This document shows, piece by piece, positions 25,461 to 26,477 of a DNA stretch of 64,000 bases. How positions within the stretch are numbered: the stretch's first letter is position 1; every line of letters begins with the position of its first letter. The notes under the pieces were generated by a model. That model did not search any database. It saw only the letters and a list, made by a program, of their open reading frames with translations, and had not been told where the DNA came from. The DNA lies in the NCBI GenBank assembly GCA_964344655.1, contig CAYFOF010000002.1:56768-120767 (forward strand). The letters are read 5' to 3'. The position numbers and the translations under genes were made by a program. The DNA is from Candidatus Woesearchaeota archaeon (lineage in GTDB: Archaea > Nanobdellota > Nanobdellia > SCGC-AAA011-G17 > PNOQ01).

Positions 25461-26477
25461 TTATCTAACTATATAAACTAAAGTTCCTTCTTTTACTTCA
25501 TCAAATACTTCAACAACCTCTTTATTTCTCATCAAAACACACCCCTCAGAACAAGGTCCTGTCTCTTTTTCAACAGTTCCTTCCCTACTAACTGCATGAA
25601 CATAAATAAACCTTTCCCACGAATTATCATTCATTTCTTCCAACCCATCTAATCGTAATATTCTAGTTGTTATAGATCTCAATCCCCAACGTTCTTTAGA
25701 TATTTCAGCAATTTTCCCAGTAAACTGTCTTGCTTTAAATATTCCCCCCAATGGAACTCCTTCTCCAATTTTTTCTCTTATAACATGCAATCCCAAAGGA
25801 GTTTTTCCAGACCCAATTACATTCCCAAATCCAGATTTTCCAGTTGAAGTATCATAAACATCCTTTAAAATAAAATTCTCATCAACTATTGAAAACAAAT
25901 AAAGATCTTGTGATTCACCATGAACAACTATAGCATTATCTGGATCAATCTCTATTTTACTAGTGGGATTATTAATTTCATTCAAAATTGATTCTTGTGC
26001 TTCTAAAAGAACTTCTTCAGGAATCGCTTCTAATCTAGGATCTTCTTCATCCATTCCTGTAGGATCAATAAAATTCATTGGATTATTATTAACATATACA
26101 TAAGGTAAATTATCTTTAACAGGATCTACTGAGGTGAATCTTCCAATATTTGGATCGTAATATCTAGCATTAAAATAATATAAATCTTCATCTAATTCTT
26201 TTCCAGTAAAAGAAAATCTTTCACCAACTTTCAACGATTGTCCAAAGGGCAAAGATTTAGAATTAATATCTGAACCTAAACGATTTTGATAATGATATTT
26301 TATATTTTCATTATTTTTTGTTGCAATTAATCTATTTCCTACGTAAAAATAAGTAGTTTCACTCTCCCCAACAGCTTTCTCAGCAGTCTCAAAAGTTTCT
26401 AGAATATCAACATCTTTAGCAATAACAACATTACTAAATAAAATAAGTAAAATTACAAATATCACCATACTTTTCAT
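25461..26477 (-). CDS. secreted RHS/YD-core protein with C-terminal L,D-transpeptidase (YkuD)-like domain; polymorphic-toxin-like
   Basis: Signal peptide. YD-repeat-like NRLIATKNNENIKYHYQNRLGSDI. RHS core terminus ARYYDPNIGRFTSVDP...YVNNNPMNFIDPTGMDE. C-terminal YVHAVSREG...GPCSEGCVLMRNKEV resembles the YkuD catalytic His...Cys motif. Confidence 0.6.
   Translation of the reverse strand: MKSMVIFVILLILFSNVVIAKDVDILETFETAEKAVGESETTYFYVGNRLIATKNNENIKYHYQNRLGSDINSKSLPFGQSLKVGERFSFTGKELDEDLYYFNARYYDPNIGRFTSVDPVKDNLPYVYVNNNPMNFIDPTGMDEEDPRLEAIPEEVLLEAQESILNEINNPTSKIEIDPDNAIVVHGESQDLYLFSIVDENFILKDVYDTSTGKSGFGNVIGSGKTPLGLHVIREKIGEGVPLGGIFKARQFTGKIAEISKERWGLRSITTRILRLDGLEEMNDNSWERFIYVHAVSREGTVEKETGPCSEGCVLMRNKEVVEVFDEVKEGTLVYIVR
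26130..26355. repeat. inverted copy of the RHS-core coding segment (paired with 49925-50150)
   Basis: The reverse complement of 26266-26355 is roughly 88% identical by eye to 49921-50010. The YYDP region is also similar. Confidence 0.6.

Follow-up and report, generated by a model that had tools for sequence, protein, structure and literature searches.

We describe two genes in a 64,000-nucleotide stretch of a contig from a Candidatus Woesearchaeota archaeon (the window, by which we mean this whole stretch) that encode small, putatively exported proteins carrying the core domain associated with RHS repeats (the Rhs core). Both open reading frames (ORFs) are present exactly as the original prediction gave them. 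Copy A lies on the minus strand at 25461-26477 and encodes 338 amino acids, and copy B lies on the plus strand at 49535-50839 and encodes 434 amino acids. Each is matched exactly by a public protein (P0001 and P0052, respectively), and they are the only ORFs of the RYYDP type in the 64-kb window. In copy A, a signal-peptide-like N-terminus (residues 1-20, 26418-26477) is followed by a conserved core block that runs from TTYFY to DPTGM (residues 41-142, 26052-26357) and then by a tail that resembles the YkuD and ElsL-like L,D-peptidases (residues 143-338, 25464-26051), with His294 and an S-x-G-C313 motif. Copy B carries an NxT stalk (residues 40-113, 49652-49873) between its own predicted signal peptide and the core block, which here ends in DPDGR (residues 130-231, 49922-50227). 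Its tail (residues 232-434, 50228-50836) contains an invariant His334 and Cys384 and is predicted to adopt a caspase-like fold of clan CD. We refer to proteins built in this manner as mini-Rhs.

The conserved part of both proteins ends with an RHS-core signature, as had been claimed. The NCBIfam model for this domain (Rhs_assc_core, TIGR03696, cutoff 32.5 bits) matches copy A at 70.7 bits, over residues 77-142, and copy B at 68.8 bits, which is about twice the cutoff in each case. BLASTP aligns residues 35-146 of copy A with residues 124-235 of copy B at 78 of 112 identical positions (70%, E 3e-53). This match stops at the DPxG motif, beyond which BLASTP finds no significant similarity between the two proteins, in agreement with the view that they become unrelated right at this boundary. 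In comparisons with the sequences of solved structures in the PDB, the shared block aligns over only its final ~55-65 residues, which match the extreme C-terminus of the shells of TcC, YenC2, TccC3, Rhs and teneurin-like proteins, and these alignments likewise stop at DPxG, exactly where the YenC2/TcC/Rhs core ends. A shared segment does precede this core, but its description as one or two YD repeats is not backed by a profile, as the Pfam RHS_repeat model (PF05593) finds no match in copy A or copy B at E<=1. Because this model matches neither protein, the TYFY..YHYQ.RLGS..LPFGQ segment is best seen, from its sequence, as belonging to the core block, of which it forms the N-terminal portion, and not as a set of independent YD repeats.

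The relationship is also visible at the DNA level, where the shared part forms an inverted repeat. The segments proposed to make up this repeat (26130-26355 and 49925-50150) are 80% identical as predicted. Identity reaches 90% over 120 nucleotides (26238-26357 versus 49922-50041) and is 71% over the next 179 nucleotides. For the full 306-nucleotide core block it is 76%, compared with 29% for random window pairs.

Some residues of the core are strictly conserved. The TIGR03696 model matches all 117 of the homologs that were aligned, and 16 core positions are invariant among them, including R105, D118, P133, D138 and G141 (numbered as in copy A). The hallmarks of the Rhs and TcC aspartyl autoprotease, namely a conserved Arg, two Asp residues in DP motifs and a terminal DPxG, are all present in copy A and in the family, and R105, D118 and D138 correspond by alignment to these Arg and Asp residues. 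Work on Rhs1 identifies the Asp of the second motif as the catalytic residue and places the cleavage site after that motif, and in solved structures the YD cage encloses the core domain as a plug (PMC8636562).

A search with copy A revealed at least 390 related proteins, a number that is a lower bound. Almost all are 330-450 amino acids in length, most derive from metagenome-assembled genomes (MAGs) of Woesearchaeota or Nanoarchaeota, and each matches just the first 30-50% of the query. The order of the constant parts is the same in the 117 aligned members: a hydrophobic N-terminus of ~20 residues, a short linker, a core of ~100 residues ending in DPxG, and a tail of 200-290 residues. When 122 of these tails were clustered by BLAST, they fell into 70 unrelated groups. 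For example, P0002-P0006, P0008 and P0009 are 66-76% identical to copy A in their first 140 residues, and their tails are mutually unrelated. The original prediction had proposed to look for paralogs with other C-terminal domains in related genomes, and had named the lack of an RHS match or of C-terminal variability as evidence that would count against it. Both the match and the variability were found, and the polymorphism of the C-terminus is confirmed.

Two comparisons locate this variability precisely. A locus in another Woesearchaeota MAG (L006) is syntenic with copy A, with the order glmS, zinc-ribbon gene, mini-Rhs, convergent rpS10 and EF-1alpha, and the tail of its mini-Rhs protein is of an HExxH type unrelated to that of copy A. 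Moreover, a DNA alignment of copy A with the mini-Rhs gene of L004 shows 90% identity through codon 144 (DPTGMDE) and 38% directly after it. This is a sharp breakpoint of the recombination type, situated three codons past DPTG.

The two copies in the window have a different history. Their codons 41-80 are 90% identical, and synonymous differences affect 19% of the codons for identical residues there versus 41% in codons 105-142. Since identity decays gradually and 19-41% of the identical-residue codons differ synonymously, the sequences indicate that copies A and B are old paralogs. A recent swap or gene conversion between them was considered and set aside, as the identity gradient is suggestive at most and has no sharp edge. 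Several large contigs hold three or four mini-Rhs paralogs each. In one Woesearchaeota MAG (L005:2048-7601), four mini-Rhs genes with different tails form a tandem array, the first two of which have no small ORF between them. The array also includes a gene for a secreted metallophosphoesterase, a homolog of which is encoded in the window at 58776-59846.

The archaeal origin of the window and its assignment to a DPANN-type host, both part of the original prediction, are borne out by several lines of evidence. The window encodes a split Rpb2, Rpb1 A', aEF-2, aEF-1alpha, FttA/aCPSF1 and TrmB, and its GC content is 31%. Genes flanking the mini-Rhs genes share 76-96% protein identity with genes on Woesearchaeota MAG contigs, and homologs of both mini-Rhs proteins are mostly named 'Candidatus Woesearchaeota archaeon', 'archaeon' or 'Nanoarchaeum sp.'. 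The composition of mini-Rhs ORFs matches that of the host genome (GC content at third codon positions 0.12-0.17), and because codon composition agrees in this way, copy A is not a recent transfer. One homolog, P0009, is named Cryomorphaceae and another, P0010, is named Woesearchaeota; misbinning is likelier here than a bacterial origin.

The tail of copy A can be assigned to a known enzyme family. It matches the YkuD domain (PF03734) at 43.7 bits (E 5e-11), above the gathering cutoff of 23.4 bits, and the profile for the ElsL L,D-carboxypeptidase (NF040925) at 88.7 bits (E 3e-25). The latter score is below the curated equivalog cutoff of 270 bits, and the tail is therefore an ElsL relative and not an equivalog. 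Residues H294, S310, G312, C313 and N318 are invariant in an alignment with seven homologs. By these sequence criteria, copy A ends in an L,D-peptidase of the bacterial YkuD/ElsL-like type whose catalytic His and Cys are intact. Its closest relatives are stand-alone proteins of 170-244 amino acids with 37-44% identity, the best of which (P0127, 44%) is encoded in a Gram-negative bacterium, with an Omp85 gene on one side and an OmpA gene on the other. No second fusion of an Rhs core to a YkuD domain was found in the homolog search with this tail.

The tail of copy B is far more isolated. A word-indexed homolog search recovered no relatives, and an exhaustive search of 1.8 billion representative proteins found eight, including copy B itself. 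Seven of these sequences were read: six have a mini-Rhs core, and one (P0136, 208 amino acids) consists of the tail alone. His334 and Cys384 are invariant. When nine tails of this type were compared with Pfam at E<=10, nothing meaningful emerged (Asp_Glu_race at E 0.008 in one tail, Pigment_DH at E 0.18), and a profile of the tail compared with PDB sequences retrieved histamine N-methyltransferase alone (E 0.33). An AlphaFold2 (AF2) model built from nine sequences has a predicted local distance difference test score (pLDDT) of 86 and a predicted template modeling score (pTM) of 0.86. The model has a caspase-hemoglobinase fold, with a His...Cys dyad placed after consecutive beta-strands, and its best structural match is an effector of a type VI secretion system (T6SS). 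Hence, the tail models as a protease of clan CD, similar to caspases, the cysteine protease domain (CPD) and DUF4347.

Among the other tails, 27 of 122 (22%) contain an HExxH motif, compared with 0.58 expected by chance, and zincin-like peptidases appear from their sequences to be the commonest tail type. The HExxH tails, in which hydrophobic residues stand before the motif, are spread over many unrelated BLAST clusters (P0012...P0116). Three tails in the family carry a PT-TG pre-toxin domain and two match TIGR02594. None match nuclease, deaminase or ADP-ribosyltransferase toxin families in Pfam at E<=0.1, and most of the at least 70 tail families are without any Pfam match.

Features at the N-terminus suggest how these proteins might leave the cell. 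Each copy has a single hydrophobic segment, located at its N-terminus and followed by V-x-A, and a hydrophobic N-terminus is kept across the family. In copy A, whose signal-peptide-like residues 1-20 read MKSMVIFVILLILFSNVVIA with KD after the predicted cut, this segment is the sole hydrophobic 19-mer. The signal peptides of the original prediction stand to the extent of these features, from which we infer that copies A and B are exported by Sec. No trafficking domain was found in either copy with Pfam and NCBIfam. Directly after the predicted cut in copy A (residues 21-26, window 26401-26417) there is a motif with the family consensus (K/E)EV-x-IPE(L/T)FE. It occurs in most family members, with I25 nearly invariant, and is missing from copy B, which has a stalk.

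Copy B has 17 NxS/T sequons, and every one falls within residues 40-111, a 72-residue stalk that the original prediction had not mentioned. This stalk is probably extracellular and N-glycosylated, judging from this count. A stalk of the same type precedes the core in P0072, P0102, P0113, P0115, P0134 and P0137. At the DNA level the stalk consists of imperfect repeats with a period of 24-30 nucleotides (repeat family D2, 49670-49876) that encode units of the (I/L)N(I/L)T type.

Two features that define classical Rhs systems are missing. We surveyed the surroundings of both window copies and of about 25 archaeal loci for a cognate immunity gene, using bacterial loci as controls with the same script. 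No such gene lies downstream of copy A or copy B, and none is present consistently across the archaeal loci. The gene 3' of copy A is rpS10, which is convergent, in accord with the earlier statement that no immunity-like gene lies directly downstream. More generally, the gene 3' of an archaeal mini-Rhs gene is convergent, is another mini-Rhs gene or is a housekeeping gene (PolB, dNK, AA_kinase, TP_methylase, MoxR or a DRG-type GTPase). We take the AA_kinase gene to be UMP kinase and the TP_methylase gene to be diphthine synthase. The short bacterial Rhs-core ORFs that served as controls are followed by a small ORF on the same strand at -16 to +64 nucleotides. In a gammaproteobacterial MAG with 57% GC (L030:5851-10006), two proteins of ~330-360 amino acids combine a signal peptide, an Rhs core and a variable tail, and each gene is directly followed by an immunity-like ORF on the same strand, one encoding a 112-residue membrane protein and the other 301 residues. 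Because L030 has the same design, the mini-architecture also exists outside archaea, and the peculiarity of the DPANN genomes is that it has expanded there in the absence of immunity genes.

The shell is missing as well. At 338 and 434 residues, and with PF05593 silent, copies A and B hold no large beta-cage of YD/RHS repeats, and only about 35 residues of the shared block precede the TIGR03696 match. A scan of the 64-kb window for YD motifs also revealed no repeat protein. The proposal of a polymorphic toxin system is therefore upheld in part: the conserved core and the polymorphic tails are real, but the immunity gene and the YD shell that define such systems are not there. Since no immunity gene is found at either copy or consistently across loci, the term fails in its classical toxin-immunity sense.

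We consider it about an even bet (roughly 50%) that copies A and B are effectors with an Rhs core but no shell, which are exported by Sec, cleave themselves and act extracellularly. According to this model, the N-terminal signal peptide would carry the unfolded mini-Rhs protein over the membrane via Sec. The core of ~100 residues would represent the C-terminal plug of Rhs and TcC proteins, with its aspartyl autoprotease, freed of the YD-repeat cage. It would probably cut itself just after DPxG and so release the C-terminal enzyme extracellularly, or the enzyme might be displayed on a stalk. The tails would be hydrolases directed against extracellular or envelope targets of other cells: that of copy A might act as an L,D-carboxypeptidase or transpeptidase on the stem peptides of bacterial peptidoglycan, and that of copy B as a caspase- or CPD-like cysteine protease, held on a probably N-glycosylated stalk, with proteins as its substrates. 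Neither a cage nor an immunity protein would be needed if the enzymes work outside the producer, and the target expected for copy A is not made by archaea. The conserved DNA of the core could serve as a homology handle for the exchange of tails between paralogs and between genomes.

Several observations weigh against this model. The first DP motif of the family reads DPV(K/P) and not DPxGL, and the two Asp residues are spaced by 20 positions, compared with the canonical 22. An AF2 model of full-length copy B, made from an alignment of 35 sequences, has a mean pLDDT of 45, with values of 34-78 in the core. Five tails in the family resemble the FlgD-Ig/Por_Secre_tail binding domains and are not enzymes. 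Finally, the locus of copy B is found in three genomes with an unchanged tail and an unchanged order (PheRS, TrmB, mini-Rhs, a convergent small ORF and TrpRS) at 50-69% identity, and such stable inheritance at one place fits a fixed physiological role better than it fits a weapon in an arms race.

The last two points lead to an alternative in which these proteins are secreted or surface enzymes that serve the physiology of the cell itself, for example by maturing the envelope, scavenging nutrients, or attaching to a host and feeding on it, with the Rhs core acting merely as a self-processing or stalk module. The peptidase-like nature of many tails, the housekeeping neighborhoods and the absence of immunity genes would be expected in this case. 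However, 70 unrelated tails on one conserved module, abrupt breakpoints and the change of tail at a syntenic locus are a signature of diversification driven by conflict. Some tails also bear a PT-TG pre-toxin domain, the best structural match for the tail of copy B is a T6SS effector, and it is not obvious what an L,D-peptidase for peptidoglycan would act on in the envelope of an archaeon. On balance we regard this explanation as unlikely.

It is also conceivable that Rhs proteins are split in these organisms, such that mini-Rhs proteins are cassettes of plug and toxin that dock in trans into a separate YD-repeat shell, as TcC completes TcB, and that the shell encapsulates or delivers the tail. 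Two loci are suggestive in this respect. In L032 (86-5101), a protein of 1262 amino acids has true RHS repeats (PF05593, E 4e-27), a dockerin-like C-terminal end and no Rhs core, and its stop codon lies 4 nucleotides before the ATG of a mini-Rhs gene. In L011 (184-7218), a similar large ORF with RHS repeats lies upstream of two mini-Rhs genes. These loci may be split shell and plug arrangements, in which mini-Rhs cassettes may plug in trans into separate core-less YD shells ('one cage, many warheads'), and the failure of AF2 to fold the core alone with confidence would also be compatible with a missing partner. However, ORFs with RHS repeats are absent from the 64-kb window and from most of the archaeal loci, and mini-Rhs genes are dispersed among housekeeping genes, each with its own signal peptide. 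A cage is also hard to square with enzymes that act on extracellular polymers. As a general account of the family, this arrangement seems quite improbable to us.

Still more doubtful is a classical toxin-immunity system whose immunity genes have escaped recognition because they are convergent or located elsewhere. One candidate is a convergent 144-residue ORF (50836-51270, minus strand) that overlaps the copy B stop codon by 4 nucleotides. In L086, L087 and L088, as in the window, the B-type gene has a small convergent ORF that abuts or overlaps its stop codon, and the position of this ORF beside B-type orthologs is thus kept. The 144-residue protein has weak similarity to its counterpart in L088 (E 3e-4 over 26 residues), and no sequence similarity to that in L086; convergent ORFs of this kind are barely alignable. 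The versions in L086 and L087 have a lipobox-like N-terminus. Small membrane or secreted ORFs downstream in L011 and L012 might be read in the same manner. Against this, copy A has rpS10 alone downstream, no ORF separates the mini-Rhs genes that stand in tandem in L005 and L018, and downstream genes on the same strand are mostly housekeeping genes. As for decayed fragments or orphan cassettes of full-length rhs genes without function, short Rhs-core ORFs that represent orphan toxin modules are indeed numerous in bacterial genomes. The archaeal ORFs, however, are uninterrupted and each begins with a signal peptide of its own, they have a length of 330-450 residues in more than 100 proteins and 16 invariant core residues, they are kept at syntenic loci and their composition is that of the host, which makes this explanation hardly credible.

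The genes next to copy A are given here as context only. A zinc-ribbon gene (26949-27278, minus strand), whose product has no Pfam family above cutoff, lies upstream, and a gene for a membrane protein of 131 amino acids (26512-26907, minus strand) stands between it and copy A. A functional link of these two genes to copy A had been suggested. For the membrane protein, we found no evidence of such a link, and the gene is missing at the syntenic locus L006. The zinc-ribbon gene is kept there, but so is the entire neighborhood. Upstream of copy B, about 80 nucleotides before the ATG, is an instance of a TTTATAAA(CC) box that recurs upstream of genes in the window (repeat families D3, D5, D6 and D9; for example at 735-774, 36699-36750, 49445-49496 and 55066-55117) and is presumably the archaeal TATA/BRE promoter consensus.

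Elsewhere in the window, three adjacent genes on the minus strand (59878-63373) encode Cys-rich secreted proteins of 332, 428 and 385 amino acids, with a C-terminal transmembrane anchor and no Pfam match. The last 145 nucleotides of the first and third genes are 95% identical (repeat D1), and homologs of these proteins adjoin a mini-Rhs gene in L009. A 120-nucleotide Rfam match to tRNA at 9696-9815 (56.4 bits), which ARAGORN did not report, suggests an intron-containing archaeal tRNA, and a weaker 58-nucleotide tRNA match (10046-10103) directly follows tRNA-Asp.

Among known systems, mini-Rhs proteins are most readily compared with the Rhs/YD toxins and TcC proteins, such as P. laumondii Rhs1, YenC2 and TccC3. 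In both, a TIGR03696 core with an Arg and two Asp residues ends in DPxG, the variable effector starts right after this core, and tails are swapped by recombination at the core. However, the YD cage of the toxins exceeds 1000 residues, whereas the mini-Rhs counterpart comprises about 100 and has no PF05593 match. Mini-Rhs proteins also lack a PAAR, VgrG, TcB or type VII secretion system trafficking domain and have just a putative Sec-type signal peptide, no immunity gene is adjacent, and their tails resemble peptidases instead of nucleases, deaminases or ADP-ribosyltransferases. Bacterial orphan rhs-CT cassettes and short Rhs-core proteins with a Sec signal are similar in size, and the proteins of L030 are alike in the order of their parts (signal peptide, a TTYFHTDGLGS...PYGE...ARYYDP...DPDG core and a variable tail). 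True orphan cassettes, however, have no N-terminal signal. Unlike the bacterial short forms, whose genes have a small immunity-like ORF on the same strand 0-64 nucleotides downstream, archaeal mini-Rhs proteins often lack one hairpin between LGS and PFG, and they lack immunity genes.

Individual tails have known parallels too. Tlde1a from Salmonella is a T6SS effector with a YkuD fold that is delivered as an antibacterial agent against the stem peptides of peptidoglycan (PMC9638812), and the tail of copy A has this fold by homology and keeps the His and the SxGC motif. In contrast to Tlde1, which relies on T6SS delivery and has an immunity protein, the copy A tail is nearest to the ElsL family of cytoplasmic recycling enzymes and is fused to an archaeal Rhs core. 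For the copy B tail, comparison with other members of clan CD (Tce1/DUF4347, CHAT and the C80 CPD) gave no family match at the sequence level. Tce1 and Tce2 are putative CPD-like cysteine protease effectors that have no immunity genes nearby (PMC13323088). Bacteria can be killed by peptidoglycan hydrolases that archaea secrete (Strock et al. 2025, PMC12352652), and for Woesearchaeota there are predictions of murein transglycosylases and of pore-forming toxins (PMC9723730). Copy A resembles these systems as a putative secreted archaeal enzyme whose expected substrate is bacterial peptidoglycan, and differs from them in that its enzyme is borne on a polymorphic Rhs-core carrier. The terms RHS, YkuD and transpeptidase are absent from the text of both papers.

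In archaea, classical polymorphic toxins are described as uncommon, and Methanosarcina is reported to have forms with full RHS repeats together with immunity cassettes (Zhang et al. 2012). A full-text literature search combining RHS with DPANN or Woesearchaeota, whose coverage did not extend to Makarova et al. 2019 (mBio 10:e00715-19), returned no description of the mini-Rhs family. The suggestion that the system had not been described holds in so far as we found no paper on the DPANN family. Nevertheless, NCBI and JGI already label these proteins 'RHS repeat-associated core domain-containing protein', and the L030 design exists in bacteria. The mini-Rhs proteins look like an undescribed, stripped-down Rhs-core carrier that dispenses with cage and immunity.

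How DPANN archaea attach to, feed on and fight with other microbes is largely unknown, and archaeal antibacterial weapons have been recognized only very recently (PMC12352652). Mini-Rhs proteins provide testable candidates for such weapons: the module is compact, several copies occur per small genome, and the repertoire consists mostly of putative peptidases. We hold it tentatively, and at rather less than even odds, that Woesearchaeota and Nanoarchaeota have expanded a hypervariable arsenal of Rhs-core proteins that lack a shell, are secreted by Sec and are aimed at the envelopes of other organisms, bacterial peptidoglycan included in the case of copy A, for which no immunity would be needed. 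Such an arsenal would amount to a weapon between domains of life or a set of tools for host lysis, made from the smallest self-cleaving part of Rhs. If it is true that the plug cleaves itself without a cage, it would constitute a minimal Rhs/TcC autoprocessing unit of ~100 residues and might find use as a fusion tag that releases itself. The tail families without Pfam matches represent a pool of uncharacterized enzymes. If there are indeed no immunity genes, the Rhs core would be able to act as a generic carrier for extracellular effectors and not only as a part of caged cytotoxins.

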